From positions 705,793 through 769,792 of the forward strand of contig CAYRKM010000001.1 of the NCBI GenBank assembly GCA_964425075.1: a stretch of DNA of 64,000 nucleotides, read 5' to 3'. Source of the DNA: an uncultured Gammaproteobacteria bacterium. GTDB lineage: Bacteria > Patescibacteriota > Microgenomatia > Levybacterales > GWA1-39-11. Shown here piece by piece: positions 5,273-22,925 of the stretch; the first letter of the stretch is position 1, and each line of letters starts with the position of its first letter. The notes under the pieces are model-generated. The model saw nothing but the letters and a program-made list of their open reading frames with translations. It did no database searches and was not told where the DNA came from. A program made the position numbers and the translations under genes.

Positions 5273-5358
5273 TTTCCTAACTGTAACATAGCTTCACTTG
5301 ATATTCAATAACTGCTACAATAACCTTAAGGTTTTGGTTTTTTTAGAATTTAAACAAA

Positions 5359-6423
5359 ATGAAAATAGGAATTTATTCTCCATATCTTGACACGATGACT
5401 GGGGGAGAAAAGTATATATTTTCAATTGCCTCATGTCTCTCAAAAAATCATTCAGTAGATATTTTTTGGAATGATAAAGAAATAATTGAAAAGGCAACAC
5501 GAAAATTTAATTTAAATCTTGAGGGGGTAAGGATTGTTCCTAACGTTTTTTCTGAGCAAGTAAACACTTTAAAAAGATTAAAAGGAACATTTGCTTATGA
5601 CAGAATAATTGTTCTTTCAGATGGCAGCATACCGTTAGTTGCAAGCAAACAACTTATACTTCATTTTCAATTTCCAGTAGAGTGGGTGAATGCTAAGTCA
5701 CCATTTATTAAATTTAAAATGAGTAGGGTTAGTAAGGTAATTTGCAATTCTTATTACACAAAAAAATATATTGATAAGAAATTTAATATACAAAGCAATA
5801 TTCTTTTTCCTCCTTCAGACGTTAATACTGGAGATATACCTGAAAAAAAGAATCTGATTCTAACAGTTGGAAGATTCAATCCATTATCAGATGGAACAGA
5901 CTTTAAAAAGTTAACAGTAATGGTTGATGCTTTTAAAGACTTTCAGAAAAAAAGATTAAAAGGTTGGAGATTTGCAATAGTAACCAACGTATTGCCGGAG
6001 AATGATAAGGAGTTCGAAGAATTTAAAAGTAAAATTGGAAGTCAATACATCGAGATACATAAAAATGTCCCATTTGATGACATAGCAAAATTGTATAAAG
6101 AAGCAAAGATTTATTGGCACGCTGCAGGATTTGGAGTTGATATAGAAAAGAGGCCAGAATGGTTGGAGCATTTTGGTATGGCAACAGTTGAGGCGATGTC
6201 ATATGGAGCAGTGCCGGTTGTTATCAATGCGGGTGGTCAGAGGGAGATTGTGAGTAATGGGAAAAATGGTTTTTTATGGAATACAACTGAAGAGTTGGTT
6301 AACTATACACACAAAATTGCAACCGAACCAAAATTATATGAGGAATTATCTGTGAGCGCTAATGAATCTTCAAAACAATTTAGTAAAGGAAGGTTTTGCG
6401 AGGAGCTTAATCAGGTAATATGA
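5359..6423 (+). CDS. GT4 family glycosyltransferase (GT-B fold)
   Basis: 354 aa. C-terminal-domain motif EHFGMATVEAMSYGAVPVVINAGGQREIV matches the GT4 E-x7-E region. Confidence 0.7.
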   Translation: MKIGIYSPYLDTMTGGEKYIFSIASCLSKNHSVDIFWNDKEIIEKATRKFNLNLEGVRIVPNVFSEQVNTLKRLKGTFAYDRIIVLSDGSIPLVASKQLILHFQFPVEWVNAKSPFIKFKMSRVSKVICNSYYTKKYIDKKFNIQSNILFPPSDVNTGDIPEKKNLILTVGRFNPLSDGTDFKKLTVMVDAFKDFQKKRLKGWRFAIVTNVLPENDKEFEEFKSKIGSQYIEIHKNVPFDDIAKLYKEAKIYWHAAGFGVDIEKRPEWLEHFGMATVEAMSYGAVPVVINAGGQREIVSNGKNGFLWNTTEELVNYTHKIATEPKLYEELSVSANESSKQFSKGRFCEELNQVI

Positions 6424-8687
6424 TACAAAAAATATTTAAGTTCTACCTTCATATTAAAACATTTCTTTTTCCGCTTTTTTTGTTAATCCTTGTAGTTATT
6501 TTTTATTATCCAACATTTCTCCAAAACAAATTGCCAATTCCATCGGATACTATAGTTGGTTTGTATCACCCATACAGAGACTTATATGACAGAGAATATC
6601 CTCGAGGAATTCCATATAAAAACTTTTTAATCACAGATCCAGTTCGTCAAACTTTTGTATGGAAAGAATTAGCAACTAGTTCATTCAAAAAAATGGAATT
6701 ACCACTTTGGAATCCATACGAAATGGCAGGAAAACCTTTGTTAGCTAATTTCCAGTCAGGAGTGTTTTATCCCTTAAATATTTTGTTTGTTGTTCTGCCT
6801 TTTACAACTGCATGGACAGTTTTTATTGTTTTACAAAGTGTTTTTATGGGTTTATTCATGTATTTGTATTTAAGAAATTTAAGGCTATCTTTTATATCAT
6901 CTTTTCTGGGATCAATAGCTCTCATATTTTCATCATTTTCAGTTGTATGGCTTGAATGGGGGAATATTATACATGCTTTTTTGTGGCTTCCATTAATACT
7001 ACTTGCAGTCGACAAATTATTTCAGAAAAAGGATAGGTATTTATTTTTTTGGGGCATATTATACGTTCTAGCTTTATTGTCTGCTTTTTTTGCAGGATAT
7101 CTTCAGACCTTTTTCTACATGTTTGTTATTTCAATATTTTATTTTGTTCTTCGCTTAGGAACAAAAAATGCTAGGCGCCTTTTACACTTCATATTACTTA
7201 ATACAATTTTTGTTCTATTGTCTTTCATACAATGGTATCCAACATATAAATTTATTCTTTTATCTGCTCGAAGTATTGACCAGAATTATTTAGTCACTGA
7301 AGGATGGTTTATTCCCTTTAAGCATCTAATACAATTTGTAGCACCAGATTTTTTTGGAAATCCTACAACCCTTAATTATTGGGGAATGTGGAATTATGCT
7401 GAGCTTGGGGGATATATAGGCATAGTTTCTCTGATGCTCGTTCCCTTCGCTTTTTTTATAAGAAGAAAACTTGTGATGTTCTTTACTGCAATTGTTTTCA
7501 GCGGATTATTATTTGCAACTGACAATTTAATTGCAAGGATTCCCTTTCAATTAGATATTCCACTTATTTCCTCCTCCCAACCTACTCGTCTGCTATCAAT
7601 TATTTTATTCTCACTTGCTGTTCTTGCGTCATTTGGCATGGAATATGTACTTAATATAAAAAGAAAATTTTCAACCTTATTCCCGTTAGCAATATGGTTA
7701 GGTGTTGTCTTGCTATTATGGTCTGCGGTTTTTCTAAAAAGCCCATTATTATTTGACGATCAGAACGTAATAGCTATAGCAAAAAGAAATTTATTTCTTC
7801 CAACAGCGCTTATTTTAAGTAGTTCCCTTTTATTTTTTGCCTTAGCCTTTTTTAAGAATAAAACCTTTAGAGCGGGAATTATAATTTTAATTTTTGTTTT
7901 TCTTTCTTTCGATCTTCTTCGCTATTCATGGAAATTTACACCCTTCACTAAGTCTGAATATCTTTTTCCACAAACTAAAATAATAAGTTTTTTACAAAAT
8001 GATAAAAGCATTTTTAGAGTCGCAGCTACTGACCAGCGTATTATGCCTCCTAATTTTCTTACACATTATAGAATTCAAACTTTAGAAGGATATGACCCAT
8101 TATATTTAAGATCTTATGCTGAATTCATAGCTTCAATGGAAAGAGGAAAGCCAGATATTAATCCTCCCTTTGGATTTAATAGAATAATTACACCACATAA
8201 TGTTAATTCTTCCTTGATGGACTCTCTAAACGTTAAATATATTCTTTCTTTTGATGAGCTAACGGATAGTAAATTTAAAAAAATAATGGTAGAGGGTAGG
8301 ACTAAACTTTATGAAAATACCCAATCATTCCCACGTGCATATTTTGTAAAAAGTATAGATACTGGTAGTAATAATCAAATTGAAATTGAGAAAATACATA
8401 AAGTAGATCTTGAAAATGTGGCTATATTATCGCAATTCAGTGCACCAGGAGAAAAAGACTACACCAAAGGAGAGGCGAGAATAAAGTTATATTCAGAGAA
8501 TAAAGTTGTTATAGAAACTCAAAATATTGGTACGGGATTTCTTGTGCTTGCAGATTCTTTCTATCCTTCCTGGAAAGCAACAATTGATGGGAGTAAAACA
8601 ACAATTTATCCTACAAACTATATATTCAGAGGAGTTGTTGTGCCGGCTGGCAAGCATACTGTAGAATTTAGTATTACGCTTTTCTAA
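6420..8687 (+). CDS. YfhO-family membrane glycosyltransferase (GT-C); paralog of 1918..4266
   Basis: 755 aa. LPLWNPYEMAGKPLLANFQSGVFYPLNILF motif and C-terminal LVLADSFYPSWKATIDG...YIFRGVVVPAGKH module. Confidence 0.7.
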   Translation: MIQKIFKFYLHIKTFLFPLFLLILVVIFYYPTFLQNKLPIPSDTIVGLYHPYRDLYDREYPRGIPYKNFLITDPVRQTFVWKELATSSFKKMELPLWNPYEMAGKPLLANFQSGVFYPLNILFVVLPFTTAWTVFIVLQSVFMGLFMYLYLRNLRLSFISSFLGSIALIFSSFSVVWLEWGNIIHAFLWLPLILLAVDKLFQKKDRYLFFWGILYVLALLSAFFAGYLQTFFYMFVISIFYFVLRLGTKNARRLLHFILLNTIFVLLSFIQWYPTYKFILLSARSIDQNYLVTEGWFIPFKHLIQFVAPDFFGNPTTLNYWGMWNYAELGGYIGIVSLMLVPFAFFIRRKLVMFFTAIVFSGLLFATDNLIARIPFQLDIPLISSSQPTRLLSIILFSLAVLASFGMEYVLNIKRKFSTLFPLAIWLGVVLLLWSAVFLKSPLLFDDQNVIAIAKRNLFLPTALILSSSLLFFALAFFKNKTFRAGIIILIFVFLSFDLLRYSWKFTPFTKSEYLFPQTKIISFLQNDKSIFRVAATDQRIMPPNFLTHYRIQTLEGYDPLYLRSYAEFIASMERGKPDINPPFGFNRIITPHNVNSSLMDSLNVKYILSFDELTDSKFKKIMVEGRTKLYENTQSFPRAYFVKSIDTGSNNQIEIEKIHKVDLENVAILSQFSAPGEKDYTKGEARIKLYSENKVVIETQNIGTGFLVLADSFYPSWKATIDGSKTTIYPTNYIFRGVVVPAGKHTVEFSITLF

Positions 8688-8688
8688 T

Positions 8689-9621
8689 ATGCGAGTAGAT
8701 ATTATTATTCCGAATTACAACGGATCACATTTGATACGCGAAAACCTTCCAAAAGTACTCAATACTCTTAAGCCTTATAAAGGCAAAGTGATAATTGTTG
8801 ATGATGGTTCAAAACCTGAAGATAGGGTATCTTTACGAGAGGTTGTAAAAGGGTATTCAGGTAGTGAGGTTGAGTTGATTGAACACACCGTAAATAAAGG
8901 TTTTTCATCAGCAGTTAACACTGGAGTTAGGGCCTCTACGGCTGATTATGTTGTTCTTTTAAATTCGGATGTAATTCCTAATAAGGATTTTCTAAAACCT
9001 CTTCTTGAAGAAATTGAGAAGGACCCCTTAATTTTTGGAATAGGTTGCATGGACGAGAGTATTGAGGGCGAAAAAACAACACTAAGAGGGAGAGGTCAAG
9101 CAAAATGGAGTAGGGGGATGCTTATACATGAAAGGGGAGACGTTAGTAGTAGTGATACATTTTGGATATCGGGGGGTAGCAGCATCTTCAGAAGAGAATT
9201 ATATATGAAGCTTGGTGGGATGGATGAGATATATAACCCTTTTTACTGGGAGGATATAGACCTTTCATATAGGGCCCAAAAATCTGGATATAAAATTTCT
9301 TTTAATAGTAAATCAGTTGTTGAACATCTTCACGAAAAAGGTGCGATAAAGAAAAACTTTCGTAAGAACAAAGTAACAACAATTGTCTATCGAAATCAAT
9401 TTACTTTTCATTGGAAAAATATTAGTGAGCAACGACTATTAATAAGTCACATCCTGTGTCTTCCATACCACGCGCTAGGTGCACTAAAAAGAGGTGATAG
9501 TGAATTTTTTAAAGGATTATTCCTTGCCCTATTAAGGCTTTCTGCTATAATAAAAAAGCGAAGTATTCAAAAGAAAAATTACAAACTTTTGGATTCGGAA
9601 ATTATTAAAAAATTTGAATGA
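8689..9621 (+). CDS. GT2 family glycosyltransferase
   Basis: 310 aa. N-terminal VDIIIPNYNG and VDDGS motifs; C-terminal region paralogous to 1..279 and 62347..63261. Confidence 0.7.
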   Translation: MRVDIIIPNYNGSHLIRENLPKVLNTLKPYKGKVIIVDDGSKPEDRVSLREVVKGYSGSEVELIEHTVNKGFSSAVNTGVRASTADYVVLLNSDVIPNKDFLKPLLEEIEKDPLIFGIGCMDESIEGEKTTLRGRGQAKWSRGMLIHERGDVSSSDTFWISGGSSIFRRELYMKLGGMDEIYNPFYWEDIDLSYRAQKSGYKISFNSKSVVEHLHEKGAIKKNFRKNKVTTIVYRNQFTFHWKNISEQRLLISHILCLPYHALGALKRGDSEFFKGLFLALLRLSAIIKKRSIQKKNYKLLDSEIIKKFE

Positions 9622-10349
9622 AAAATAGCTCGTCACCAACATTGTCAATTATAATTCCTGCATATAACGAAGAAAATACAATAGGTGAGGTGCTTGATAA
9701 TCTTAAGAAGCTCGATTTTCTTTCAGGTTCTAGAGAATTTATCGTCGTAGACGATGGATCAAAAGATAATACTGCAAAAATTATTAAAGAGAAGAGCAAA
9801 AAAATATCTGAGATTAATTTTATCCAACACGAAAAAAATAAGGGAAAGGGTGCTGCCGTAAGAACAGGTATCCAAGCTTCAAAAGGGAAAGTTCTTATAG
9901 TTCAAGATGCTGATTTGGAGTACAGTCCAAGTGACATTCCTCGTTTGATTGAACCTATTCTTAAAAACAAAACTAAGGTTGTTTATGGGACAAGACTTCG
10001 TCAAAAACCTGTATTTTTTGGAAAAGACAAGACTCCTTTATTGTTAAATTTCTTTGGAAATAAATTTTTAAGTCTTGTAACCTCAGCGCTCTACGGTTCT
10101 TCAATTACCGATATGGAAACTGGATATAAGGCATTCTTAAGAACAGTTATTGAAGATATGAAGTTAAAGTCTCGTTCTTTTGATTTTGAACCTGAAATTA
10201 CTGCAAAAATACTTAAAAAAGGGATAAAAATTTTGGAACTTGATATAAAAGTGAATCCAAGAGGGTACGATGAGGGAAAAAAGATTGATGTTAGAAAAGA
10301 TGGTGCTATCGCCCTTTGGACGCTTATTAAATATAGATTTATAAATTAA
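9618..10349 (+). CDS. GT2, polyprenyl-phosphate sugar synthase type (Ppm/DPM1/GtrB/ArnC-like)
   Basis: 243 aa. LSIIIPAYNEENTIGEVL...VVDDGSKDNT...VQDADLEY is the signature of Dpm1-like enzymes that load sugars onto polyprenyl phosphate. Confidence 0.7.
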   Translation: MKNSSSPTLSIIIPAYNEENTIGEVLDNLKKLDFLSGSREFIVVDDGSKDNTAKIIKEKSKKISEINFIQHEKNKGKGAAVRTGIQASKGKVLIVQDADLEYSPSDIPRLIEPILKNKTKVVYGTRLRQKPVFFGKDKTPLLLNFFGNKFLSLVTSALYGSSITDMETGYKAFLRTVIEDMKLKSRSFDFEPEITAKILKKGIKILELDIKVNPRGYDEGKKIDVRKDGAIALWTLIKYRFIN

Positions 10350-10352
10350 TGC

Positions 10353-11855
10353 ATGTCGCGTCCTACTTCTTCATGGACAGTTGCCTTTATTAGAAATAAT
10401 TTACCGCTTATTGCTATTCTTTTTTTGGGAGCAATACTTCGTTTTTATAATTACCCCGACAGATGGGGAATTGCATATGACCAGGCTTGGTTTGCCACTA
10501 TTGCCCACTATGCATTAGATACTTATCAATTACCATTACTTGGACCTTTCGCCTCTGGTGGGCCTTTCCAAACTGGCGGTGAGTGGTTTTGGGTTTTAAT
10601 GCTAGGGATTGCCCCTTTCCCTTACGTAGTAAATGCCCCCTGGATTTTTTTAACGGTACTTTCAGTAGTCCAAATTTTTGTTAGCTATGTTTTGGGTGTT
10701 GTTTACAAAAATAAATCATTTGGGCTTCTTCTCGCATTTCTTTGTGCAATTTCCTCCACACTAGTTTTGCAGTCAACAAATCTTACGAACCAAATGCTTA
10801 TATCAATGATTTCAACTGTATTTCTCATATTCTCCATTTTATACTTAAGAATCCCAAAAATATCCACACTTTTTTATGCAAGTTTATGTGTTGGTTTAGC
10901 TTCGGCAATGCATTTTCAGGGGGTTATTCTTCTTCCCGCGCTTTTTTTATTAATTTTAGTTAGTAAGTCTTTTCAATTTAAAAGAATTGTTACAGTAATT
11001 TTGGGAGTTGTTGTGCCCTGGTTGCCGGTGCTATACGTTGATACGCAAAATAATTTTTTTAACACAATAAATATTCTTACATATTATAAAAATCCCCAGA
11101 GCCAAGCTTCATATGAAGTTTTAGGAAGAAGATGGCTAACATTTATTTTCGACTATATACCGACATCGTGGGGATATGTAGTGGGGGGGAATAGGTGGAT
11201 GGGGTATTTAGAGGTTACTCTTGTAAGTTTATTAGTTTTAAAAAAATTCATAAAAAGGAAGATTACTAAGGAGTTTCTTTTTGTAATTTCAACAATTGCA
11301 ACTCTAACTATAGTTCTTAGATATCTAAAAATTCCTCTTTACGAAAATTACATAAACTTCCTGCACCCATTTATATTTCTTGTGGTTGCATTAAGTGTCT
11401 TTTTTATATTTAGATTTAGCAAGATTTTAGGTATAGGATTTATTTGTCTTATTGCAATTTTCAGTTTTCAAAGGATTAATGAAAACGTCTCAATAAGTAC
11501 GAATACAACAGCAACTCAAAGCGCAGAGCTTGCAAAGATCCTAAAGGGAAAATATCCAGGCGAGAAATTTGCCATTTATGACTTTGGAGATTCTCAAGGT
11601 CATCGTTCTATGCCGCTTTCATATTACTTATTGGTTGATGGACTTGCAGATAGCTCTGGAAGAAAAATAGGTTTGGCAGCAGCAACTATTGGAGGACAAC
11701 TAGAATTTCAGTCACACAAATTAATATTTGGTGAGTTTGGCAAGAGTCAAATATTTGATTTATCCAGTTCATCAGAGGCAGAGCTCCTTCATTCTGGATG
11801 GAATGATAGGAGTCCTGAGCATGTTTATAATTCTGTTCAAAATTGGTATAAATAA
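10353..11855 (+). CDS. Polytopic membrane protein, GT-C-like; distant paralog of 15181, 16687 and 17969
   Basis: 500 aa, at least 10 predicted TM segments. A WGIAYDQAW acidic motif follows TM1 and is shared with the downstream paralogs. Confidence 0.5.
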   Translation: MSRPTSSWTVAFIRNNLPLIAILFLGAILRFYNYPDRWGIAYDQAWFATIAHYALDTYQLPLLGPFASGGPFQTGGEWFWVLMLGIAPFPYVVNAPWIFLTVLSVVQIFVSYVLGVVYKNKSFGLLLAFLCAISSTLVLQSTNLTNQMLISMISTVFLIFSILYLRIPKISTLFYASLCVGLASAMHFQGVILLPALFLLILVSKSFQFKRIVTVILGVVVPWLPVLYVDTQNNFFNTINILTYYKNPQSQASYEVLGRRWLTFIFDYIPTSWGYVVGGNRWMGYLEVTLVSLLVLKKFIKRKITKEFLFVISTIATLTIVLRYLKIPLYENYINFLHPFIFLVVALSVFFIFRFSKILGIGFICLIAIFSFQRINENVSISTNTTATQSAELAKILKGKYPGEKFAIYDFGDSQGHRSMPLSYYLLVDGLADSSGRKIGLAAATIGGQLEFQSHKLIFGEFGKSQIFDLSSSSEAELLHSGWNDRSPEHVYNSVQNWYK

Positions 11856-11880
11856 TCAATAAGATTTATTCTGCAAGACT

Positions 11881-13524
11881 ATGTTTAAAAAAGTTTTTGG
11901 CTCTACAAAGTATTTGCTTGTGTTAATTTTTCTTCTTGCAGGAGTTCTACGAATATGGGGAATTGGACACCTTCCCCCTTCGCTTACTTGGGATGAGGTA
12001 GCATGGGGCTACAATGCTTATACATTAGGAATTGATGGAAAGGATGAGTTTGGACGATTACTGCCATATGAATACTTAGAGTCATTTGGCGATTTCAAGC
12101 CACCTTTATATGCGTATTTAGATATTATTCCTATAAAAATATTTGGGCTGACTGAATTTGCCGTCAGACTACCTTCAGCAATATTTGGAACTTTGACTGT
12201 ACTTTTAACATATTTTCTAGTCAGAGAAATTTTTTACTCTTCTAAAAGAAGAGAGTTTTATGCATTGCTTTCAACAGTAATCATGGCATTTTCTCCCTGG
12301 CATATAAATTTGTCCAGGGCTGCATTTGAAGCAAATGTTGCCTCTTTCTTCCTAATTTTTGGTGTTTTTGCATTCCTAATAGCTACCAGACGAAATATTT
12401 GGCTTCTAATTCTATCATCAACCTCTTTTGCTCTTTCTTTTTATGTTTTTAATACATCCCGTATAGTAGCTCCACTTTTGGTGATTGTGCTTGCTCTTTT
12501 TTTCTTTAAAAAACTTACAAAAAATCTGTTACCAACAATTGTAGCAATTGTTGTTGGTGTAGCATTGTTGTTGCCATTGGTGAATTTTCTCCTTTCACCT
12601 CAAGCAAGTCTTAGGTTTAGAGAGGTGAATATTTTTACAGATGAAAATGTAGTCAAGACTGCAAACCAGGAAATACTAAACGACAATAATTCTCCGTTTA
12701 GTAAGATACTGCATAATAGAAGGCTTAAATATGCTATTTCATTTACTACACATTATTTAGACAATCTTAATCCTTCATTCCTATTTATCAAGGGAGACGG
12801 TAACCCAAAGTTTTCAACGAGAGATGTCGGTCAGTTGTACCTTTGGTGTCTTCCTTTTCTTCTTATTGGGTCTGTTATGTTGTTTAGGAAACGTGAAGGT
12901 AGGTGGTGGATTGTACCTTTTTGGTTATTTCTTGGAATAATTCCTGCAGCAACTGCAAGGGAAACGCCCCACGCACTTCGTATAGAGACAGTTCTTCCCA
13001 CCTTGCAAATAGTTGTTGCCTATGGGGCAGTGACAGCATATTTTTATCTGAAAGAGCACCTTAAGAAAAATATCTTTAGAGCAGTTATTTTCATTTTAGT
13101 ATTTTCATATCTTCTTAATGTGACTTATTATCTTTATGGATATTATGTGCATTATGCACGCGAACAATCTGGTGAATGGCAGTATGGATATAAAGAAGCA
13201 TTAAGTTTTACAAGAGAAAATGAAAACAATTTTAATGATATTTACTTTACTACAGTTTTAGGTAGACCCTACATCTACTATCTTTTTTATGGAAAAATCG
13301 AGCCGACTTATTTTAGAGAAAATTCGACAGTTGAACGAGACGCTTTCGGTTTTGTAAATGTTTCAAGAGTTGGGAAATACCATTTTTTAAGTGATGCAAA
13401 AATGAGAGAACACAAGAATGCCCTTTATGTTGGGCAAACGACTGATATTCCTAAGAATGCAATTATTTTAAAAACAATTTATAAATTAAATAGTGAGAGC
13501 GCACTTGTTATCTATAAGTTCTAA
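11881..13524 (+). CDS. ArnT/PMT_2-like glycosyltransferase (GT39/GT83-type GT-C)
   Basis: 547 aa. LTWDEVAWGYNAY (the DE motif of the first loop) and DFKPPLYAYL (the xPPL motif) resemble PMT_2/ArnT-family proteins. Confidence 0.65.
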   Translation: MFKKVFGSTKYLLVLIFLLAGVLRIWGIGHLPPSLTWDEVAWGYNAYTLGIDGKDEFGRLLPYEYLESFGDFKPPLYAYLDIIPIKIFGLTEFAVRLPSAIFGTLTVLLTYFLVREIFYSSKRREFYALLSTVIMAFSPWHINLSRAAFEANVASFFLIFGVFAFLIATRRNIWLLILSSTSFALSFYVFNTSRIVAPLLVIVLALFFFKKLTKNLLPTIVAIVVGVALLLPLVNFLLSPQASLRFREVNIFTDENVVKTANQEILNDNNSPFSKILHNRRLKYAISFTTHYLDNLNPSFLFIKGDGNPKFSTRDVGQLYLWCLPFLLIGSVMLFRKREGRWWIVPFWLFLGIIPAATARETPHALRIETVLPTLQIVVAYGAVTAYFYLKEHLKKNIFRAVIFILVFSYLLNVTYYLYGYYVHYAREQSGEWQYGYKEALSFTRENENNFNDIYFTTVLGRPYIYYLFYGKIEPTYFRENSTVERDAFGFVNVSRVGKYHFLSDAKMREHKNALYVGQTTDIPKNAIILKTIYKLNSESALVIYKF

Positions 13525-13525
13525 T

Positions 13526-15178
13526 ATGATTAAAGATTTAGTTGAAGGAAAAAAAATGACTTTAATAATTTTTGCGATTATTATTCTTTTAGGATCTATA
13601 TTGCGTCTGTGGCAATTGGGAAATACGCCACCATCACTAAATTGGGACGAGGTTGCTTTAGGATATGACGCATACTCTATTTTTGAAACGGGGAGAGATG
13701 AATTTAGTGCAAAGTTCCCAATAATACTTCGTTCATTCGACGATTATAAGCCAGCTCTTTATGCGTATTTAATAATTCCAGCTTATAAAGCTTTTGGACT
13801 CAATGAATTTGCAGTAAGATTGCCTTCAGCTTTCTTTGGAATATTAACTCTAATTAGCGTTTTCTATTTATCAAAGAAACTCTTTAACCGGAATGATTTA
13901 GCGCTTCTAGTTATGCTAATTCTTGCGATATCTCCTTGGCATATTCAGTTTTCACGGGTTGCCTTTGAATCTAATGTGGGTTTAGCTTTCAATGTGTTTG
14001 CCGCAACCCTTTTTCTTTATAGTTTCAAACGTCCTTATCTTTTAATTATTGCGGCCATTATGGCAGGATTGAGTCTTCACACGTATCAAAGTGAAAAAGT
14101 ATTTACTCCTCTTTTTATGCTTGGAATATCAGTTATTTATCTAAAGGATTTGCTGAGAATTCCACGAAAATATCTTATTGGTGCTGTTTTTGCAGGACTT
14201 ATTGTCATACTCCCATTATTAATTTATATAGTTAACGACCAAAATGCACTTCTTAGGGCAAAGGGTACAAGTATTTTTAGCAACAATACCGTTTTATTAA
14301 AGGAGAATGCCAAACGAAACGAATATAACATAACAGCAAATAATCCTTTGGGAAGAATTCTTGATAATAGACGAATTGTTTATGCTAAAAGCATTGCAAA
14401 TGGATATTTATCTCATTTTGACCCGAATTGGCTTTTGAAGGGAGATATTGGTCGTCACCATGCACCAGAAATGGGCCTTATATATCTGTGGGAATTGCCA
14501 ATTATATTGTTTGGTATATACATATTATTATTCTCAAAATTTGATAAAAAGACAAAATACCTCATTTTCTTTTGGTTTGCTCTAGCACCTGTTCCTGCTT
14601 CAGTTACACAAGAAGTTCCACATGCAGTAAGAACCCTTAATTTTTTACCAACATGGCAAATATTTACTGCTCTTGGTTTGTGGGGCGCAATCATATTTTT
14701 ACGAACATTAAATATTTCAAAAATTTACAAAGCGACAATTCTCGGTTTAGTTGGGGCATTTATTGTTTTTAACTTTGTTTATTACCTGAATCAATATTTC
14801 GTTCAGCAGAATTATTTTAGCGCGCAAGATTGGATATATGGACATAAACAGATGATTTCTGAAGTCTTAAAAAGAGAGAAAAAGTTTGAAAAAATTGTTA
14901 TATCAGATGATAGACCCATGGATAAATCATATATGTTTTATTTGTTTTTTTCTAAATATCCTCCCGAAAAGTACCAGCAAACAAAATCTCCATCAGGAAA
15001 TTTCAAGACTCATCAGAAGTTTGGTAAATACGAATTTCGTCCAATTAATTGGGTAGAGGATAGTGGCAAAAAGAACGTATTGTTTGTTGGTAACCCTTGG
15101 GAGATTGATAAAAGAGATGTTGTATTTACAGTTTATTATCCAAATGGCGAACCTGCGATGGTTATGGCCGAAAATTAA
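13526..15178 (+). CDS. ArnT/PMT_2-like glycosyltransferase; tandem paralog of 11881..13524
   Basis: LNWDEVALGYDAY and DYKPALYAYL motifs. The start was moved to the ATG at 13526, just after the upstream stop; the ORF track gives an upstream-extended 13493. Confidence 0.65.
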   Translation: MIKDLVEGKKMTLIIFAIIILLGSILRLWQLGNTPPSLNWDEVALGYDAYSIFETGRDEFSAKFPIILRSFDDYKPALYAYLIIPAYKAFGLNEFAVRLPSAFFGILTLISVFYLSKKLFNRNDLALLVMLILAISPWHIQFSRVAFESNVGLAFNVFAATLFLYSFKRPYLLIIAAIMAGLSLHTYQSEKVFTPLFMLGISVIYLKDLLRIPRKYLIGAVFAGLIVILPLLIYIVNDQNALLRAKGTSIFSNNTVLLKENAKRNEYNITANNPLGRILDNRRIVYAKSIANGYLSHFDPNWLLKGDIGRHHAPEMGLIYLWELPIILFGIYILLFSKFDKKTKYLIFFWFALAPVPASVTQEVPHAVRTLNFLPTWQIFTALGLWGAIIFLRTLNISKIYKATILGLVGAFIVFNFVYYLNQYFVQQNYFSAQDWIYGHKQMISEVLKREKKFEKIVISDDRPMDKSYMFYLFFSKYPPEKYQQTKSPSGNFKTHQKFGKYEFRPINWVEDSGKKNVLFVGNPWEIDKRDVVFTVYYPNGEPAMVMAEN

Positions 15179-15180
15179 CA

Positions 15181-16686
15181 ATGAAAATAACTCCCTTTTT
15201 AAGTAGTAAGAAATTTGGATATTTAACTTTTTTTGTTATATTGTTTTTTGCTATTTTTTTAAGGTTCCAGGGGGTTATCACCAACTCATTTCCATTTACT
15301 TATGACATTGGGCGAGACCTTATTACGGCTCGTGAAATTGCTACCCTCCAAAAAATCCCTCTGATTGGACAAACGACAGGATTACCCGGATTGTTTTACG
15401 GCCCAAGTTGGCACTATATACTTGCGTTTTTTTACCACCCTCTACAAGGAGACCCGCAATTTTTTACAGGACTAATTAATGCTACTGGAGTTATCATGGT
15501 CTCTTTAGCCTATTTTTTGGGAAAAAAAATTGGAGGAACAGTTTTGGCAATATCTTGGTCCGGTCTTCTTGCAGTCTCTCCTGCTGTTATTGCATTAACA
15601 AGTCAAATATGGAATCCAGACCTTATTCCTATTTTTTGGATAGGAACATACATATCTCTTTATTTTATTTATAAGAATCGAAAACCACAACTTAACTTCT
15701 TTGTTTTGGGGGTATTAATGGCATTAATTATAGATATGGAAATAGTAGTGGGACTTTTATATGCAGCCGGCATATTTTTAAGTGTAATTATTTTAGGAAA
15801 AAAGTTTTTTTCTATTAAAAAAGTATTATTGTGTGTGTTGGGATTTTTAATCATAATGTCTCCTCGTTTTATATTTGACTTTCGTCATGACAATGTACTT
15901 AGTAGGACCTTAATAAATGGCTTATTGCAGATGTTTGTTAGGGGAGGGGATGGAAGCCCAACAACTCCGTTTTCCCAAAAGGCACTTGCTATTTTTTCTA
16001 TTTGGAATGAAACCTTTACCAGTGGGAATGTAATTCTCGGAGGAATAATGTTAGCAACCGTTTTGTTATTGACGATTATTTTGTTTAGAAAAACAAATAG
16101 CACAATTAAATTCTTTTTAACAACAACCATCGTTACAATTAGTATTTCTATAATTGGTTTATTCTTATTTGGACATGAAATTTGGAATCATTATTTAGTT
16201 ATGTTCCCAGTGTTATTTGTTACTTGGCTGGCCGTAGTGATAACAATGGTTGGTTCTGTAAAGAAATACCGAATAAGCGCATTACTGTTTGCCTTTATAC
16301 TTATTGTTCTAAATATAAATTTACCCCAACAATATAAAAATTTGACAACTCCTCTTTGGGAGGGTGATGCTGCTGTTTACAGAAACCAAGTAAAAGTAGT
16401 TGATTACATTTATGAAAAAGCAAATAAAAATCCTTTTAAGTTTATTGTTTACACTCCCCCAGTACACGACTATACTTATGAATACTTATTCAATTGGTAT
16501 GGCCCAAAGAAATATGGATACACGCCAAACGAGTCATCTAAGTTGTTTTTTGTAATTTTAGAACCTGATAACGAACAACCCCAACGTCTTAAAGATTGGT
16601 TAAAGGTGAGAGAAAATGATGGGGAAACAATTGAAGTTTCAAAAGTTACAGGGGGGATTGTTGTTCAGACGAGGAAAGTACAGTAA
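15181..16686 (+). CDS. Polytopic membrane protein, GT-C-like (paralog group B)
   Basis: 501 aa. FTYDIGRDLITAREIA...LIGQTTGLPGLFYGPSWHY aligns with 17969 (FGFDHGREYLMVRDIV...LIGTQLGAGSAGIQGIFHGPGYYY). Confidence 0.5.
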   Translation: MKITPFLSSKKFGYLTFFVILFFAIFLRFQGVITNSFPFTYDIGRDLITAREIATLQKIPLIGQTTGLPGLFYGPSWHYILAFFYHPLQGDPQFFTGLINATGVIMVSLAYFLGKKIGGTVLAISWSGLLAVSPAVIALTSQIWNPDLIPIFWIGTYISLYFIYKNRKPQLNFFVLGVLMALIIDMEIVVGLLYAAGIFLSVIILGKKFFSIKKVLLCVLGFLIIMSPRFIFDFRHDNVLSRTLINGLLQMFVRGGDGSPTTPFSQKALAIFSIWNETFTSGNVILGGIMLATVLLLTIILFRKTNSTIKFFLTTTIVTISISIIGLFLFGHEIWNHYLVMFPVLFVTWLAVVITMVGSVKKYRISALLFAFILIVLNINLPQQYKNLTTPLWEGDAAVYRNQVKVVDYIYEKANKNPFKFIVYTPPVHDYTYEYLFNWYGPKKYGYTPNESSKLFFVILEPDNEQPQRLKDWLKVRENDGETIEVSKVTGGIVVQTRKVQ

Positions 16687-17988
16687 ATGAAAAAAAATAG
16701 GGAAAATTTTTTGGCAAGAATTCATAAATACATAATGGCGAATCCGCTAATAGTCTTGGTTTTGGCTATTTTTATTGTAGCTATATTCCTTCGTTTTTTT
16801 GAGATCAATGAAAGAACACCTTTTGGTTGGGACCAGGTGGATAATGCTTGGGCTGCGGCAAGGCTAATTTCAGAAGGGCAGTTCCCCCTTTTGGGTATGC
16901 AGGCAAAAGGGAATAGTGGGGTATTTATTGGTCCTTTCTATTATTATTTTGTTTCAATTTTCTATTTCATTACCAATCTTGATCCGATTGCCGCAGGAAT
17001 TATTGCTGGAGTAACCAGCATTTTTTCACTTCTCGTCATTTTTTATGTGACAAAAAGGATATTCTCAGTAGGCGTTGCCATTATTGCGATATTTATTAAT
17101 ACTGTTTCTACTACTGCTATTATCTCAGAACGCTCCCAGTGGCCTGTAAATTTCATACCAGTAATTGCACTTCTTACTCTCTATTCTCTTTATGAAATAT
17201 CGAGGGGAAAAAGTAGGTATATTCTACTGCTTGCCCTTGTATTTGGGTTTTCATTTCATATTCATTTTACGTCGCTATATTATCCGATTATTTTTTTGCT
17301 CATGCTACCATTCTTTCCAAGAAATAAAGAAATGGTAAGGTATTCGTTATTTGGGTTACTGATTCTTATTCCCTTTTTTATTCCAACAGCAATTGCTTTT
17401 GCTTCAAGCATTCAAGATTCTGCAAGAATTGCAACTTATGGACAAAGTTATTTTCATGGGTTTCATTTAAGACGCGTAATGCAATTAACTGGTGACGCCG
17501 TTATTCAGTTTGGTCCATATTTAAAGTATGATTTTTTACGACCTTTTCAATTCATTCTTCTACCATTATTTATTTTTGTTTATCTTTACAAAAAATTAAA
17601 ACGTGAAAGAATAATTCTATGCTATCTATTCTTACTTTTTTTCATTGTTCCTTGGTTGGTTCTCTCAACATATAGTGGAGAACTTACAGATTATTATTTT
17701 TCAGTTTCAAAATTTGTTGCTCTTATTATAATTTCTTATCTCATATATAGAGTTTTCTCAATAAGATTAGTTTTTGTAAAAATTATTGTTGTAATTCTGC
17801 TTATTGCATATGGCGTTTTAAATATTAGAGACTATTTTATTAGTGATAAAAGTAATTCGTTAAATGTGCATAGAGCAAGAACGCTAGAAAAAATAGAAAA
17901 AAAGGAATTTGTTGAGTATCAAGATGGGGTTCCCGAAGTATATTTATATTATTATTACATGAGACAAAATGGAAAAAAAGTTTATTAA
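16687..17988 (+). CDS. Polytopic membrane protein, GT-C-like (paralog group B)
   Basis: 433 aa. FGWDQVDNAWAAARLI...PLLGMQAKGNSGVFIGPFYYY. The start codon directly abuts the upstream stop (TAAATG). Confidence 0.5.
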   Translation: MKKNRENFLARIHKYIMANPLIVLVLAIFIVAIFLRFFEINERTPFGWDQVDNAWAAARLISEGQFPLLGMQAKGNSGVFIGPFYYYFVSIFYFITNLDPIAAGIIAGVTSIFSLLVIFYVTKRIFSVGVAIIAIFINTVSTTAIISERSQWPVNFIPVIALLTLYSLYEISRGKSRYILLLALVFGFSFHIHFTSLYYPIIFLLMLPFFPRNKEMVRYSLFGLLILIPFFIPTAIAFASSIQDSARIATYGQSYFHGFHLRRVMQLTGDAVIQFGPYLKYDFLRPFQFILLPLFIFVYLYKKLKRERIILCYLFLLFFIVPWLVLSTYSGELTDYYFSVSKFVALIIISYLIYRVFSIRLVFVKIIVVILLIAYGVLNIRDYFISDKSNSLNVHRARTLEKIEKKEFVEYQDGVPEVYLYYYYMRQNGKKVY

Positions 17989-19513
17989 AAAAGAGTCACG
18001 TTCATTTGAAAAATGGCAAGCTTATGCAAAGCGGGTTATTGTAGTTGTGGGAATTCTTTTAATAGCCTTGGGTATTTTGATGAGGGCAACTGAGGTAATT
18101 AACAAAAATTATGTTTTTGGATTTGATCATGGGAGAGAGTACCTAATGGTAAGAGATATTGTTGAAAACAAAGACCTTCGACTTATTGGAACGCAGCTTG
18201 GGGCAGGGTCTGCTGGCATACAGGGAATTTTCCATGGACCTGGTTACTATTATTTTCTAGCAATCCCCTACATATTGTTTAGTGGTGATCCGTATGGTGG
18301 AGTAGTGTTAATGTTTGTATTTGGACTTGGAGCAATTTTTCTAAGTTTTTTGATTGGTAAAAAGTCATTTGGAACCATAGGTGGAATAATACTCGCTACA
18401 TTCATTGCACTTTCCCCACCAATTATTGCACAGTCCAGATTTTTCTGGAGTCCATTTCCTTCTACTTTTTTTGCCCTCATTGCATTTTACTTTGTTTATC
18501 AAATTAGGAAAAATTACAAATATGCATTTTTTGCTTCTTTTTTCTCTGCTTTTGTTTATCACTTTGAATTCGCAATTGCGGTTCCCCTACTTATCGCATT
18601 GTTTTTTTATTCTTTAGTTGTTCTTAAGATAAATAACATTAAGCATTACGGAGTAATGTTTTTGGGAGCAATAATTGCCGCGTTACCAGCGATTATCTTT
18701 GAAGTAAGGCATAATTTTATGGCAATTAGAGGTGCCTTTAGCTATGTTGCCTCTCCTGTAAGAGATTCTCATGCACCCAGTTTTTTACAAAATCAAATTG
18801 ATCATTTTGGAGCGTTCATTCTTAATTTTTCTGATACATTTCCAAATAGAGAACTTTTTCCGCCTTTATTTCTTTTTGTCTTAATTTCTGTTCCATTATT
18901 TATTTATATAGCTAAAGAAAAAGATAAGAGCATCAGGCAATTCGTCATTTATTTATTAATTCTTACGGCAATAACTTTTGTTTCATTTATGCCCTTAAGA
19001 AACGCTGTTTATCAATACTACCTATTTCATTTAGTTGTTGTGTATTCATTCTTTTGTACATACATTCTTGTAAAATCCTTTAAAAAAGATAAAGCAATTT
19101 TTGCAATATTTTCTGTAGTTATGCTTCTATATATAATTACCTCTGTTCCCAAGTTCATCCAAACATTTAAATACGACATTGATGATTATGGAGGAATTGC
19201 AAAAATAGAGGGCAAGGTGGATGCAATTGATTATATATTTGCTGACGCAAAGGGCGAAAAATTTGGCTTATTAGTATTTTCGCCACCTGTTTATACTTAT
19301 CCCTACGACTATATTATTTTATGGAGACAAAATCGGTATAATTACTTTCCTCACCAATCAAAAAAAGGTGTATTTTATTTATTGATAGAAAAGGATCCCG
19401 ATAAGCCCTGGTCTTATAAAGGTTGGTTGGAAACCGTTATTAAGAGTGGGAGGGTAATAAAAGAAGTGACGCTTCCAAGTGGATTTATTATCCAGAAAAG
19501 AATAGAAGAATGA
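17969..19513 (+). CDS. Polytopic membrane protein, GT-C-like (paralog group B)
   Basis: 514 aa. Its C-terminal soluble tail (FSPPVYTYPYDYII...) mirrors the 15181 tail (YTPPVHDYTYEYLF...). Confidence 0.5.
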   Translation: MEKKFIKKESRSFEKWQAYAKRVIVVVGILLIALGILMRATEVINKNYVFGFDHGREYLMVRDIVENKDLRLIGTQLGAGSAGIQGIFHGPGYYYFLAIPYILFSGDPYGGVVLMFVFGLGAIFLSFLIGKKSFGTIGGIILATFIALSPPIIAQSRFFWSPFPSTFFALIAFYFVYQIRKNYKYAFFASFFSAFVYHFEFAIAVPLLIALFFYSLVVLKINNIKHYGVMFLGAIIAALPAIIFEVRHNFMAIRGAFSYVASPVRDSHAPSFLQNQIDHFGAFILNFSDTFPNRELFPPLFLFVLISVPLFIYIAKEKDKSIRQFVIYLLILTAITFVSFMPLRNAVYQYYLFHLVVVYSFFCTYILVKSFKKDKAIFAIFSVVMLLYIITSVPKFIQTFKYDIDDYGGIAKIEGKVDAIDYIFADAKGEKFGLLVFSPPVYTYPYDYIILWRQNRYNYFPHQSKKGVFYLLIEKDPDKPWSYKGWLETVIKSGRVIKEVTLPSGFIIQKRIEE

Positions 19514-19525
19514 TACAATATAGAT

Positions 19526-20302
19526 ATGAAGAAATTATCTGTGGTTCTAGCTACTTTTAATGAAGAGGAAAATTTGCCTAGGTGTCTTGATGCAGTTAAG
19601 GAATTGGCAGATGAGATAGTAATAGTCGATGGGACATCAAAAGACAAAACAGTAGAAATTGCACGAGGATATGGTGCAAAAGTTATTGTTACTTCAAATC
19701 CACCCAATTTTCACATTAACAAACAAAAAGCAATCGATAAAGCGAGTGGAGAGTGGATTTTACAATTAGATGCTGATGAAGTTGTATCCTCAGAGCTTGC
19801 AAAAGAGATTCAAAAATTAATTGCCCACAATACAGAAGAAAACGGATTTTGGATGCCAAGGAAAAATTATTTTTTGGGGCGCTACTTAATGAAGGGTGGT
19901 CAATATCCTGATTATACAGTGAGACTTTACAAAAATGGAAAAGGAAAGTTGCCACAAAAGGATGTTCACGAGCAGGCTACTATTGAAGGGAAAGTTGGGT
20001 ATCTCAAAGAGGCATTGCTTCATTATCCATACAAAAACTTTAATGTATATTGCAAAAAATGGATGAGATACAATAGGCTAATTGCGGCACAAACTGCAGA
20101 TCAGCTCAAGGGGAAAAATTTATTTTACAAAGTGTATATAGCAGTTGCCGATTTGGTTTTACGTCCATCTCACTGGATGTTAACTACCTACTTTCGCCAC
20201 AAAGGTTTTGTAGATGGATGGCAAGGATTTGTGTTTTCATTAATGTCTTCTCTTCGTTTTCCAGTTTCGTACATACTGTATTTAGCTGGAAAGTATGTTT
20301 AA
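19526..20302 (+). CDS. GT2 family glycosyltransferase; paralog of 4263..5018
   Basis: 258 aa. LSVVLATFNEEENL...IVDGTSKDKT...LQLDADEVV. Confidence 0.7.
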   Translation: MKKLSVVLATFNEEENLPRCLDAVKELADEIVIVDGTSKDKTVEIARGYGAKVIVTSNPPNFHINKQKAIDKASGEWILQLDADEVVSSELAKEIQKLIAHNTEENGFWMPRKNYFLGRYLMKGGQYPDYTVRLYKNGKGKLPQKDVHEQATIEGKVGYLKEALLHYPYKNFNVYCKKWMRYNRLIAAQTADQLKGKNLFYKVYIAVADLVLRPSHWMLTTYFRHKGFVDGWQGFVFSLMSSLRFPVSYILYLAGKYV

Positions 20303-21291: not shown

Positions 21292-21816
21292 ATGTTTCGA
21301 TATTATTTTATTTTTGCTACTGCTTTTTTACTATTTCTTTTCTTCACTACCCCAACATTTGCCCAGTCTACATATGTTTTACCTTATCCGTCAGCCATGC
21401 CGGGAAGCGTATGGTATAAAGTAAGCTTGGTAAAAGAAATGTTGTCAAAATATTGGCAATATGGGGATTTTGGGCAGTTTGATTACAATCTTAAACAGTC
21501 TGATAAATATCTTGTTGAGGCAAAAATCCTATTTGACTACAAACAATATCTTCTTGGTTATAGCGCTCTTCTCAAATCGGACAAATATTTTATCCAAATT
21601 CCTAAGCATCTTGAAAGTGCCTCAAAAAATGGCAAAATCATAAATGACAAGAAAAAAATCTTTATTGAAGCGTCACTTAAGCACACAGAAGAGTTGAAAA
21701 AAATGAAGGATAGTGTTCCTGAAGTTTTTACTTGGACGCCAGAAAAAAACGAACCGACAGTTTTAATGCTTTCAAAAACAATAAATTCATCAATTGAAAA
21801 AAGGAGTATTAAGTGA
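21292..21816 (+). CDS. Secreted DUF5667-like protein
   Basis: 174 aa. Signal peptide (…TPTFAQS) followed by LPYPSAMPGSVWYKVSLVKE, resembling the LPYPG.LP..P.Y..K..E start of DUF5667 proteins typical of CPR. Confidence 0.45.
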   Translation: MFRYYFIFATAFLLFLFFTTPTFAQSTYVLPYPSAMPGSVWYKVSLVKEMLSKYWQYGDFGQFDYNLKQSDKYLVEAKILFDYKQYLLGYSALLKSDKYFIQIPKHLESASKNGKIINDKKKIFIEASLKHTEELKKMKDSVPEVFTWTPEKNEPTVLMLSKTINSSIEKRSIK

Positions 21817-22925
21817 TTTTATATATTTATTCAATTTCTTTAATTCTATTTTCCTTTTTTACTTATCTTTTTGTAGATATTAATTTCATTTATCTTAAAA
21901 ATTTTATTACACGAATAGCTCTTGATAACAGGATTATTGTAAGTACTATTTATTTCGTTTTTATATCTTCTTTTTTCATACTTTATGCTTTAATTCTTAA
22001 TAAAAACAAAATTGAGACTATTTTTAAGCACAAATTTACATTGTGTATTGTTGCAATACTTTTGCTTTTGGCATATCCTGCATATGTTTCTTATGATATT
22101 TTTAATTACATAGCAACGGCAAAAGTTACTTTTTTCTATTTCGAGAATCCTTATGTTGTTATGCCCATTGAATTCACCAAAGATCCAGTTTTGCTTTTTA
22201 CCCACGCTGCCAACAAATTGGCGCTTTATGGCCCATTTTGGATTATATTATCGGGTATTCCATTCATGCTTTCGTTTGGAAACTATTTAGTTGCTATTTT
22301 TCTATTCAAGTTGATTTCTGCAGGGTTTTTTGTAGGATTATGTTATTTAATATTAAAAATAACTAACAGTAAATTTAGCCTCGTATTATTTTCTTTAAGT
22401 CCTTTAGTTCTTTTGGAAACCTTTGTGAGTGGGCATAATGATACGGCAATGATGTTTCTGGCACTATTCTCATTTTATCTGATACAAAAGAAAAAAATTA
22501 TTTTGGCAATTGTTTTTATTATGCTTTCCATTTTGATTAAATTCGCAACAGCCATTCTTTTACCAGTTATTTTTTATTGTGTTTACAAAAAATTTAAAAA
22601 GCAAAATTTAAATTGGAACAACGTATGGCTAATATCATTTTTGCTAATGCTTATTATATTTTTTCTTTCTTTCCTGCGTGAAGAAATTTATCCTTGGTAT
22701 GCTATTTGGCCACTGACGTTTCTTGTACTTATGCCTCAAAAGAAAAATATAATTATACTTTTCTCGGTATTTACTTATGGATTAATGTTGAGATATCTAC
22801 CCTATATGCTATTGGGAGATCATTTTGGAATAACGCCCATTCTTAAAATTATTTTTATGACAATTCCGGTTGTGGTCACTTTTTTCTTTTTGTATATAAA
22901 CAAAAAAATTAGAGCAAAATTTTAA
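21813..22925 (+). CDS. Polytopic membrane protein, possible GT-C (unassigned family)
   Basis: 370 aa, about 10 TM segments. Contains a conserved-looking SGHNDTAMMF motif. Confidence 0.4.
   Translation: MILYIYSISLILFSFFTYLFVDINFIYLKNFITRIALDNRIIVSTIYFVFISSFFILYALILNKNKIETIFKHKFTLCIVAILLLLAYPAYVSYDIFNYIATAKVTFFYFENPYVVMPIEFTKDPVLLFTHAANKLALYGPFWIILSGIPFMLSFGNYLVAIFLFKLISAGFFVGLCYLILKITNSKFSLVLFSLSPLVLLETFVSGHNDTAMMFLALFSFYLIQKKKIILAIVFIMLSILIKFATAILLPVIFYCVYKKFKKQNLNWNNVWLISFLLMLIIFFLSFLREEIYPWYAIWPLTFLVLMPQKKNIIILFSVFTYGLMLRYLPYMLLGDHFGITPILKIIFMTIPVVVTFFFLYINKKIRAKF

Follow-up and report, generated by a model that had tools for sequence, protein, structure and literature searches.

Transmembrane glycosylation by three- and multi-component systems is an established framework (PMC8035078; PMC11127046), and the GT-C_A class of membrane glycosyltransferases (GTs) has been described as having 7-13 transmembrane (TM) helices and a small extracytoplasmic domain after TM1 (PMC11127046). 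The subject here is an array of six consecutive membrane-protein genes, called A to F (positions 10353-19513), in a 64,000-nucleotide (nt) stretch of contig CAYRKM010000001.1 (the window) from a candidate phyla radiation (CPR) bacterium. Described systems include GtrA/B/C of Shigella and Salmonella phages and CsbB-GtcA-YfhO, GtlA/GtlB, GacI/J/K/L, and CsdAB/CD/EF of Gram-positive bacteria (PMC8035078; PMC11127046); the array shares with them a GT2 of the polyprenyl-phosphate-sugar-synthase type beside PMT_2 or YfhO GT-Cs, a flippase candidate nearby, a setting in an envelope-glycan locus, and an Asp after TM1. It differs in that about six PMT_2-type GT-Cs (at least 13 GT-C-like genes counted over 32 kb) stand behind one or two GT2s, whereas the known systems pair a single GT-C with each GT-A. 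A GtrA-family flippase was also missing among the small window ORFs scanned, and a CPR bacterium, represented by a contig of ~0.84 Mb, is the host.

Tandem GT-C paralogues kept over the long term are also known from the mycobacterial embC-embA-embB genes, and Emb and AftA are among the fold matches of the array proteins. The Emb, Aft, Mpt, and PimE enzymes use polyprenyl-phosphate-sugar donors at the outer face of the membrane with distinct acceptor and linkage specificities, for which the same is predicted here, and a weak, sub-threshold GT87 (MptA-like) match was likewise obtained for one gene of the window. However, Emb proteins are of ~1,100 amino acids (aa), carry C-terminal carbohydrate-binding modules, and belong to GT53, whereas the array proteins are of 433-561 aa and PMT_2/ArnT-like, and a decaprenyl-phosphoarabinose pathway is not evident.

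ArnT of Cupriavidus metallidurans (GT83; 5ezm and 5f15) is the best structural match of A and F, with which it shares ~13 TM helices and a C-terminal extracytoplasmic alpha/beta domain, and it has a K-P-P after the first loop as in B and C; identity is only 10-12%, however, none of the proteins matches an ArnT equivalog of NCBIfam, and lipid A is an implausible acceptor in CPR bacteria. The GT39 enzymes (yeast Pmt1-Pmt2; actinobacterial Pmt with Ppm1) resemble B and C, which pass the Pfam PMT model, carry an Asp-Glu pair in loop 1, and lie near a GT2 that is like dolichol-P-mannose synthase (DPMS) or Ppm1; the B-C tandem is itself reminiscent of the Pmt1-Pmt2 heterodimer. GT39 enzymes use polyprenyl-P-mannose to mannosylate Ser/Thr residues of proteins, and the eukaryotic ones carry MIR domains. 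The array proteins have no MIR domains and no sequence match to solved PMTs; for the models of A and F, PMT structures come out far lower in rank than ArnT and STT3. The kind of gene described here is already known, as public GT39 and ArnT-like labels attest, and so are tandem GT-C paralogues (embCAB). A literature search on GT-C arrays of CPR, Patescibacteria, or Levybacteria found no specific description.

On the evidence set out below it is likely that A to F are six distinct GT-C_A (PMT_2/ArnT-like) membrane glycosyltransferases of a Levybacteria CPR bacterium, probably all active, which form two anciently diverged groups (B and C; A, D, E, and F), fill a variable slot in a surface-glycan locus, and act outside the cytoplasm with polyprenyl-phosphate-sugar donors.

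Layout, homology, and fold of the six proteins

The six open reading frames (ORFs) are co-oriented on the + strand and nearly abut, and each encodes a polytopic protein with 7-10 hydrophobic TM-like segments, in agreement with a first-pass annotation of this DNA that described six consecutive membrane-protein genes. Gene A (10353..11855; 500 aa) encodes a GT-C-fold membrane glycosyltransferase, the most divergent of its group, with ~12-13 TM helices and a C-terminal alpha/beta domain of ~100 aa. Gene B (11881..13524; 547 aa), a PMT/PMT_2 (GT39/ArnT-like) GT-C, opens a conserved tandem completed by C (13526..15178; 550 aa), a PMT_2/PMT GT-C. The start of C is ambiguous between an ATG at 13526, 1 nt past the stop of B, and a GTG at 13493, which gives the longest ORF and a 32-nt overlap with B; the ATG-start version is absent from the public protein collection, indicating that the deposited gene call starts elsewhere. 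Gene D (15181..16686; 501 aa) encodes a GT-C glycosyltransferase that is a full-length paralogue of F and has a strongly conserved C-terminal domain, assigned here as extracytoplasmic. Gene E (16687..17988; 433 aa) encodes a shorter GT-C of the A/D/E/F group in which most of this domain is missing, and orthologues of E are of like size (421 aa in locus L044, 428 aa in L045, and 432 aa in L049). Gene F (17969..19513; 514 aa) encodes the GT-C paralogue of D, its start overlapping the end of E. The junctions measure 25 nt (A-B), 1 nt (B-C), 2 nt (C-D), 0 nt (D-E), and -20 nt (E-F, an overlap), so that the spacing of 0-20 nt initially reported is close to correct. Outside the array, 3 nt separate A from the upstream gene GT2c and 12 nt separate F from the downstream gene GT2d. 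A promoter and terminator scan returned fewer sites than shuffled controls and was uninformative on operon structure.

Homology within the two groups is partly visible in pairwise BLAST, where B and C share 35% identity over 539 aa (E 5e-96), D and F share 26% over 489 aa (E 3e-38), and E matches both D (E 2e-8) and F (E 7e-10). Because A has no match to the other five at E < 0.01, its relationship had to be sought with family profiles. Family alignments were made from orthologues, collected via database searches for the sets A1, A2, and A3 and from related loci for B, C, and E, and compared profile to profile with hhalign. Protein A then aligned with D (1.5e-23), F (7.7e-19), and E (1.1e-15) over 345-364 columns; the remaining comparisons within groups gave 2.7e-19 for D-E, 1.9e-23 for E-F, 2e-132 for B-C, and 6.8e-80 for D-F, the last over 486 columns and including the C-terminal domain. 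Between the groups, B and C matched D, E, and F at 1e-7 to 1e-11, and A at only ~3e-4 to 7e-4. As a control, the Wzx-type flippase encoded at 27431 gave E > 0.07 against all six, and the full set of unrelated or distant polytopic window proteins compared (Wzx flippase, YfhO, and GT87-like) gave E-values of 0.01-0.6 with probabilities below 12%. This separation of the six from polytopic controls indicates that the similarity signal is not one of hydrophobic composition. The division proposed in the first-pass annotation, with B and C as an ArnT/PMT-like pair and A, D, E, and F as a second family, was recovered both by these comparisons and by a bootstrapped tree; membership of A in the second family is borne out at the profile level only.

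Four residues are invariant across the six-protein alignment (R30, D43, S134, and P225 in the numbering of A). The second of these is an Asp lying just past TM1 in every protein (YDQAW in A, YDIGR in D, WDQVD in E, FDHGR in F, and WDEV in B and C); it is invariant in the family alignments of B, C, D, E, and F and kept in at least 90% of 40 A-family sequences, in which the adjacent Q44 is invariant. By family, the residue corresponds to D42, without exception in the 40-sequence D family, to D53, likewise in the F family, to a D-Q pair in nine of nine E-family sequences, and to a WDE motif in all 26 B-family and all 22 C-family sequences. The proposal that B and C can be aligned through WDE and KP(P/A)LYAYL holds, and the latter motif aligns with KPPFHMWV of ArnT. 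Two motifs suggested for the second family are present as well: the acidic D-x-G/A-R/W motif describes the Asp after TM1 in A, D, and F, with E departing from the exact pattern, and of the G(P/Q)xxG...G(P)x(Y/W)YY segment a ...GP.YYY form is present in D, E, and F and an altered form in A. The family-invariant residues are found in the segment that links predicted TM1 to predicted TM2 and at a few positions further on, which the helix layout of AlphaFold2 (AF2) models would place in extracytoplasmic loops; the positive-inside character of the N-termini likewise suggests that the post-TM1 Asp faces outward.

Among described families, B and C exceed the cut-off of Pfam PF02366 PMT (22.7 bits) with 47.6 and 29.3 bits, respectively, a model that A, D, E, and F do not match. 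Pfam PF13231 PMT_2 (gathering cut-off 26.1 bits) is passed by B (42.3), C (41.4), and E (27.2), with D just below (23.0), and precomputed matches to it exist for the majority of orthologues of A and of F and for a minority of those of D; public names given to orthologues of A, D, and F include 'glycosyltransferase family 39 protein' (GT39) and ArnT-like. None of the six is an equivalog of a named NCBIfam family: no ArnT-type equivalog was matched at E <= 0.1 by any of them, and the Agl23 model (TIGR03663; cut-off 126.25 bits) was not reached by B (28.5 bits) or F (15.6 bits). No MIR domain was detected in the six with Pfam.

The structural fold test covered A and F, and B, C, D, and E are assigned to GT-C by homology. 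AF2 models built from 40-sequence alignments reached a predicted local distance difference test score (pLDDT) of 90.0 and a predicted template modelling score (pTM) of 0.90 for A, and 90.3 and 0.90 for F. Each model shows ~12-13 membrane helices, and the segment from TM1 to TM2 contains short helices and a hairpin. In Foldseek searches of the PDB, the top match of A was ArnT 5ezm (E 2.8e-6, TM-score 0.60) and all of its top 40 were GT-C enzymes; that of F was ArnT 5f15 (E 2.1e-7, TM-score 0.56), followed by STT3, ALG12, and AftA, with GT-C enzymes filling the top 17. Across the two models the matches after ArnT comprised AglB, PglB, STT3, ALG12, ALG9, Emb, AftA, and PMT, while transporters scored no higher than 0.18. 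Because both models match ArnT and other GT-C enzymes first, the second group, including its two Pfam-less proteins, has a GT-C fold, as the first-pass annotation had suggested structure prediction might reveal. Sequence reaches a solved structure in one case, a joint B+C profile that matches ArnT 5ezm weakly (E 1.6e-4 over 165 aa) via the KPP motif. The features of the GT-C_A class are present in the array: the number of TM helices, a small domain between TM1 and TM2, the post-TM1 Asp, and likeness to solved structures, for which A and F provide the models. Predicted structure and sequence together support the view that all six are GT-C-type enzymes.

Orthologues, synteny, and age of the duplications

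A Poisson-corrected neighbor-joining (NJ) tree of 76 sequences (497 columns, 100 bootstraps) resolved each of A to F as a separate orthologue clade with 99-100% bootstrap support. B and C were joined at 100%, as were D and F; the division of A, D, E, and F from B and C received 100% and the grouping of A, D, and F 86%. Mean identities are 41-53% within families, 35% for B-C, 27% for D-F, and 14-18% for other pairs. Orthologues of the array genes occur across Levybacteria and, for B and C, also in Gottesmanbacteria; those of B are 44-61% identical and found in at least 24 loci, and those of D are 40-63% identical. Among 22 evaluable loci, 20 have an orthologue of C directly after that of B, most often at a spacing of -4 to +6 nt, and the tandem is already present in Gottesmanbacteria (L040). 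At the DNA level, the only similarity remaining among the paralogues is a 123-nt segment of B and C at 72%. With paralogues at most 35% identical and DNA similarity essentially gone, synonymous divergence is saturated. The copies are therefore, on comparison of their sequences, ancient and individually conserved genes with no recent local amplification. Local duplication and divergence, as initially proposed, is upheld in that the two paralogue groups are real and arose by duplication in an ancient sense; expansion in place in recent times is not, since orthologues are closer to one another than paralogues are.

Comparison with 43 loci from species-representative genomes and several metagenome contigs revealed a common backbone of GT2a-YfhO-GT4-YfhO-GT2b-GT2c-A ... 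B-C ... GT2d-GalE. In the ten loci with both anchors, the interval from GT2c to GT2d spans 4.9-15.5 kb and holds ~3-9 polytopic genes. In the closest fragment (L049), D-E-F-GT2d-GalE are retained along with the 20-nt overlap of E and F, two other loci (L044 and L045) carry eight or nine PMT_2-like genes in succession, and in a fourth (L050) a PTPS_related gene stands in the slot of A and a YfhO gene in that of E (pair of sites 3274-4935 / 11520-13853). When the polytopic ORFs of the window and of 45 loci (285 in all) were clustered at >=36% identity and 75% coverage, 55 clusters resulted. Array content varies among genomes by whole-gene gain, loss, and replacement, other GT-C families (YfhO and PTPS_related) included, and the region is a mosaic of GT-C cassettes in which the array takes up a variable GT-C slot bounded by two conserved GT2 genes.

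An exhaustive profile search with the A family among 1.84 billion representatives returned 338 clusters at E <= 1e-30, 1,297 at E <= 1e-10, and 4,206 at E <= 1e-3. The closest relatives of the array proteins are annotated Candidatus Levybacteria, Microgenomates, or Patescibacteria. Many GTDB records of metagenome-assembled genomes with a Levybacteria-type locus (L001, L003, L004, L006, and others) carry the title 'uncultured Gammaproteobacteria bacterium', and Deltaproteobacteria and Saccharimonadales each appear in the title of one record; for these assemblies, titles are unreliable as taxonomy.

Donor, acceptor, and alternative explanations

Two GT2 genes bracket the array. GT2c (9618..10349, + strand; 243 aa), directly upstream of A, encodes a soluble GT-A (GT2) enzyme that matches Pfam Glycos_transf_2 at 124.6 bits. 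Among solved structures it is closest to dolichol-P-mannose synthase 5mlz (E 1.2e-16), ArnC, and GtrB, and its best NCBIfam matches, each below its own cut-off, are AglJ, dolichyl-P-hexose transferase, ArnC, and PpgS, all of which are polyprenyl-phosphate-sugar synthase families. GT2c is a candidate maker of a lipid-linked sugar donor. GT2d (19526..20302, + strand; Pfam Glycos_transf_2, 80.3 bits) closes the array and is followed by a GalE-like epimerase; its orthologues are 47-75% identical and occupy the end of the array in relatives. Natural fusions connect these genes with the membrane enzymes: P0436 (731 aa, metagenome) consists of a GT2c-like domain (45% identity, E 4e-60) followed by an A-family GT-C domain, and P0426 (761 aa, metagenome) has a GT2d-like domain at its N-terminus (65% identity, E 3e-123), again followed by an A-family GT-C domain. 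P0054 (761 aa) has the architecture of P0426 and is a single gene call in locus L048 (2180-4465). By the Rosetta-stone argument, both flanking GT2 types are functionally tied to the A-type GT-C family. A GT-A synthase encoded together with a GT-C, as in three-component systems, is present here in that GT2c lies immediately before A, this adjacency recurs in most related loci, and P0436 unites the two.

The adjacent DPMS/ArnC/GtrB-like GT2 and the GT2-GT-C fusions suggest a polyprenyl-phosphate-linked donor for A to F. On the model of the multi-component systems (Gtr, CsbB/YfhO, GacI-L) and of the mycobacterial Emb, Aft, and Mpt enzymes, a cytoplasmic GT-A, GT2c and possibly GT2d too, would load a sugar onto polyprenyl phosphate, the lipid-linked sugar would be flipped across the membrane, and each GT-C would transfer it at the membrane's outer face to a surface glycopolymer or glycoprotein, with the conserved Asp of the first extracytoplasmic loop as a presumptive catalytic or otherwise essential residue. 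Each paralogue may supply its own acceptor or linkage; long-term retention of every one of them makes distinct specificities, as first suggested for these genes, a reasonable inference.

Several observations weigh against this scheme. Neither A nor F has a Pfam match. Nothing useful came from searching PDB sequences with the profiles of A and F or with B and C singly, and Foldseek support is moderate (E 1e-6 to 1e-7, TM-scores 0.56-0.60). The best solved relatives of GT2d are GmaR and SunS, which are protein or peptide glycosyltransferases and not lipid-phosphate-sugar synthases, contrary to a role for GT2d in making the donor. Three-component systems have a dedicated flippase (GtrA-type, Wzx, MATE, or SMR) for the lipid-linked monosaccharide; among the small window ORFs scanned no GtrA-family protein was present, and the sole flippase candidate, of the Wzx type and encoded 8 kb downstream, may instead export repeat units.

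Four other explanations have to be set beside the proposed one, two of them concerning how the array came about. That the resemblance of A to D, E, and F, and of one group to the other, is compositional only, of the hydrophobic low-complexity kind typical of polytopic proteins, would accord with the failure of A in pairwise BLAST and with the low identities between groups, but profile E-values of 1e-15 to 1e-23 lie far from those of the other polytopic window proteins, polar loop residues are invariant across the six, and separate AF2 models of A and F each retrieve ArnT first. Profile values, invariant residues, and AF2/Foldseek matches effectively refute a compositional artefact, to which we give next to no credence; alignment was the check proposed with the first-pass annotation, and the negative controls and shared loop residues decide it in favor of homology. 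It is very unlikely that one or two ancestral genes were recently amplified in tandem at this site, with the copies now diverging, as might be supposed from adjacent, co-oriented genes with near-zero spacing and from the sister-group relationships of B with C and D with F. Orthologues at 41-53% identity are closer than paralogues at 14-35% and form separate, well-supported clades, the B-C tandem is shared with Gottesmanbacteria, and DNA identity is confined to the short B-C segment; contradicted by the tree, the Gottesmanbacteria tandem, and the lost DNA similarity, recent tandem duplication is rejected.

The other two concern what the enzymes do. ArnT is the best structural match of A and F and the only solved structure reached by the B+C profile, and ArnC is among the relatives of GT2c, all of which would suit true ArnT orthologues adding aminoarabinose or a similar sugar to lipid A. 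The missing equivalog match and the 10-12% identity in structural alignment argue otherwise, as do the Arn pathway genes ArnA, ArnB, and ArnD, none of which was recognised as such in the window. CPR bacteria (Patescibacteria) are generally described as being without lipopolysaccharide biosynthesis, which also counts against ArnT orthology. We reject this reading as extremely improbable. Closer to the proposed scheme, with overlapping chemistry and a different acceptor, is the possibility that B and C, and perhaps others, are PMT/GT39-type protein O-glycosyltransferases that work with a Ppm1-like GT2c on S-layer proteins, pilins, or lipoproteins. The scores of B and C above the Pfam PMT cut-off and their invariant loop-1 Asp-Glu pair point this way, together with the family 39 label that NCBI gives to relatives, the dolichol-P-mannose synthase that is the best solved relative of GT2c, and the protein or peptide glycosyltransferases nearest to GT2d. 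Against it, sequence leads to ArnT alone among solved structures and to none of Pmt1, Pmt2, or Pmt4, the A and F models match PMT structures only at low rank, MIR domains are lacking, and the locus is polysaccharide-like, with its Wzx flippase, GT4s, and sugar-nucleotide tailoring enzymes. We regard protein O-glycosylation as unlikely, though a serious contender, and favor GT-C_A enzymes that belong to a surface-glycan system of several components.

An extension of the favored reading is offered tentatively and is, in all its parts, doubtful. In Microgenomates-type CPR bacteria, the GT2c...GT2d interval would be a modular slot for exchangeable GT-C cassettes, where up to nine GT-Cs (PMT_2-like A-F, YfhO, and PTPS_related) might serve as an outer-face assembly line for a lineage-specific surface glycan, likened in logic to mycobacterial arabinan and mannan synthesis, and swaps of cassettes might diversify the surface for host attachment or phage evasion. 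The always-adjacent, translationally coupled B and C might then form an obligate heterodimer like Pmt1-Pmt2 or EmbA-EmbB.

The surrounding locus and its significance

The array sits in a cell-surface-glycan locus of at least 60 kb, in a window of ~33% GC that has an unbroken run of + strand genes from 276 to 32809. At least 13 GT-C-like genes lie within 32 kb; besides the array, the window's GT-C-type genes are two YfhO, two PTPS_related, a further PMT_2, and one that matches GT87 (MptA-like) weakly. Also encoded are the Wzx-type flippase (27431-28699; Polysacc_synt), GT4s, GT2s, epimerases/dehydratases, a nucleotidyltransferase, a UDP-sugar dehydrogenase, and tailoring enzymes in the form of DegT aminotransferases, methyltransferases, and acetyltransferases.

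Pairs of related genes occur outside the array as well, the PTPS_related pair (276-1931 and 24720-26396) being 28% identical (E 3e-73) and the YfhO pair (1918-4266 and 6420-8687) 32% identical (E 1e-110). Four large polytopic ORFs have no Pfam match (22925-24754, 609 aa; 41799-45179, 1126 aa; 47219-48901, 560 aa; 52621-54612, 663 aa) and carry 10-13 hydrophobic segments each, and the ORFs at 41799 and 52621 are alike (24% over 483 aa). These four could be further GT-C enzymes, polymerases, or ligases. Beyond GalE lie an ORF of 174 aa (21292-21816), whose orthologue in L044 carries DUF5667, and then a 370-aa membrane protein gene (21813-22925), the one with the weak GT87/MptA-like match, whose orthologues in L044 and L045 carry Pfam MptA_B_family; this order is repeated in several relatives and suggests another conserved module of the locus. 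An ORF of 181 aa (59990-60535) matches only the N-terminal GT4 domain (Glyco_transf_4) and lies just upstream of a complete GT4 (60617-61738); it may be either a fragment or half of a split gene. A small DUF5652 ORF (5015-5272, - strand) lies beside a gap in the + strand run (5018-5359), the only gap checked for small ORFs.

What is noteworthy in the array is its scale, as part of a 32-kb set of at least 13 GT-C-like genes, the cassette-like replacement of slots, and the GT2-GT-C fusions; our understanding of how GT-C enzymes work is unchanged by it. The six genes are an orthology-resolved set of small GT-Cs (433-561 aa), with GT2 fusions pointing to their donor synthases, and could be used as starting points for biochemistry on the specificity of GT-Cs and for interpreting the diversity of surface glycans among uncultured lineages. 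A small CPR genome here devotes at least 60 kb of a contig of ~835 kb to surface-glycan genes, GT-C-like enzymes prominent among them, and this large share suggests that the surface glycan matters greatly to an episymbiotic lifestyle, in which host recognition, attachment, and phage avoidance may depend on it.

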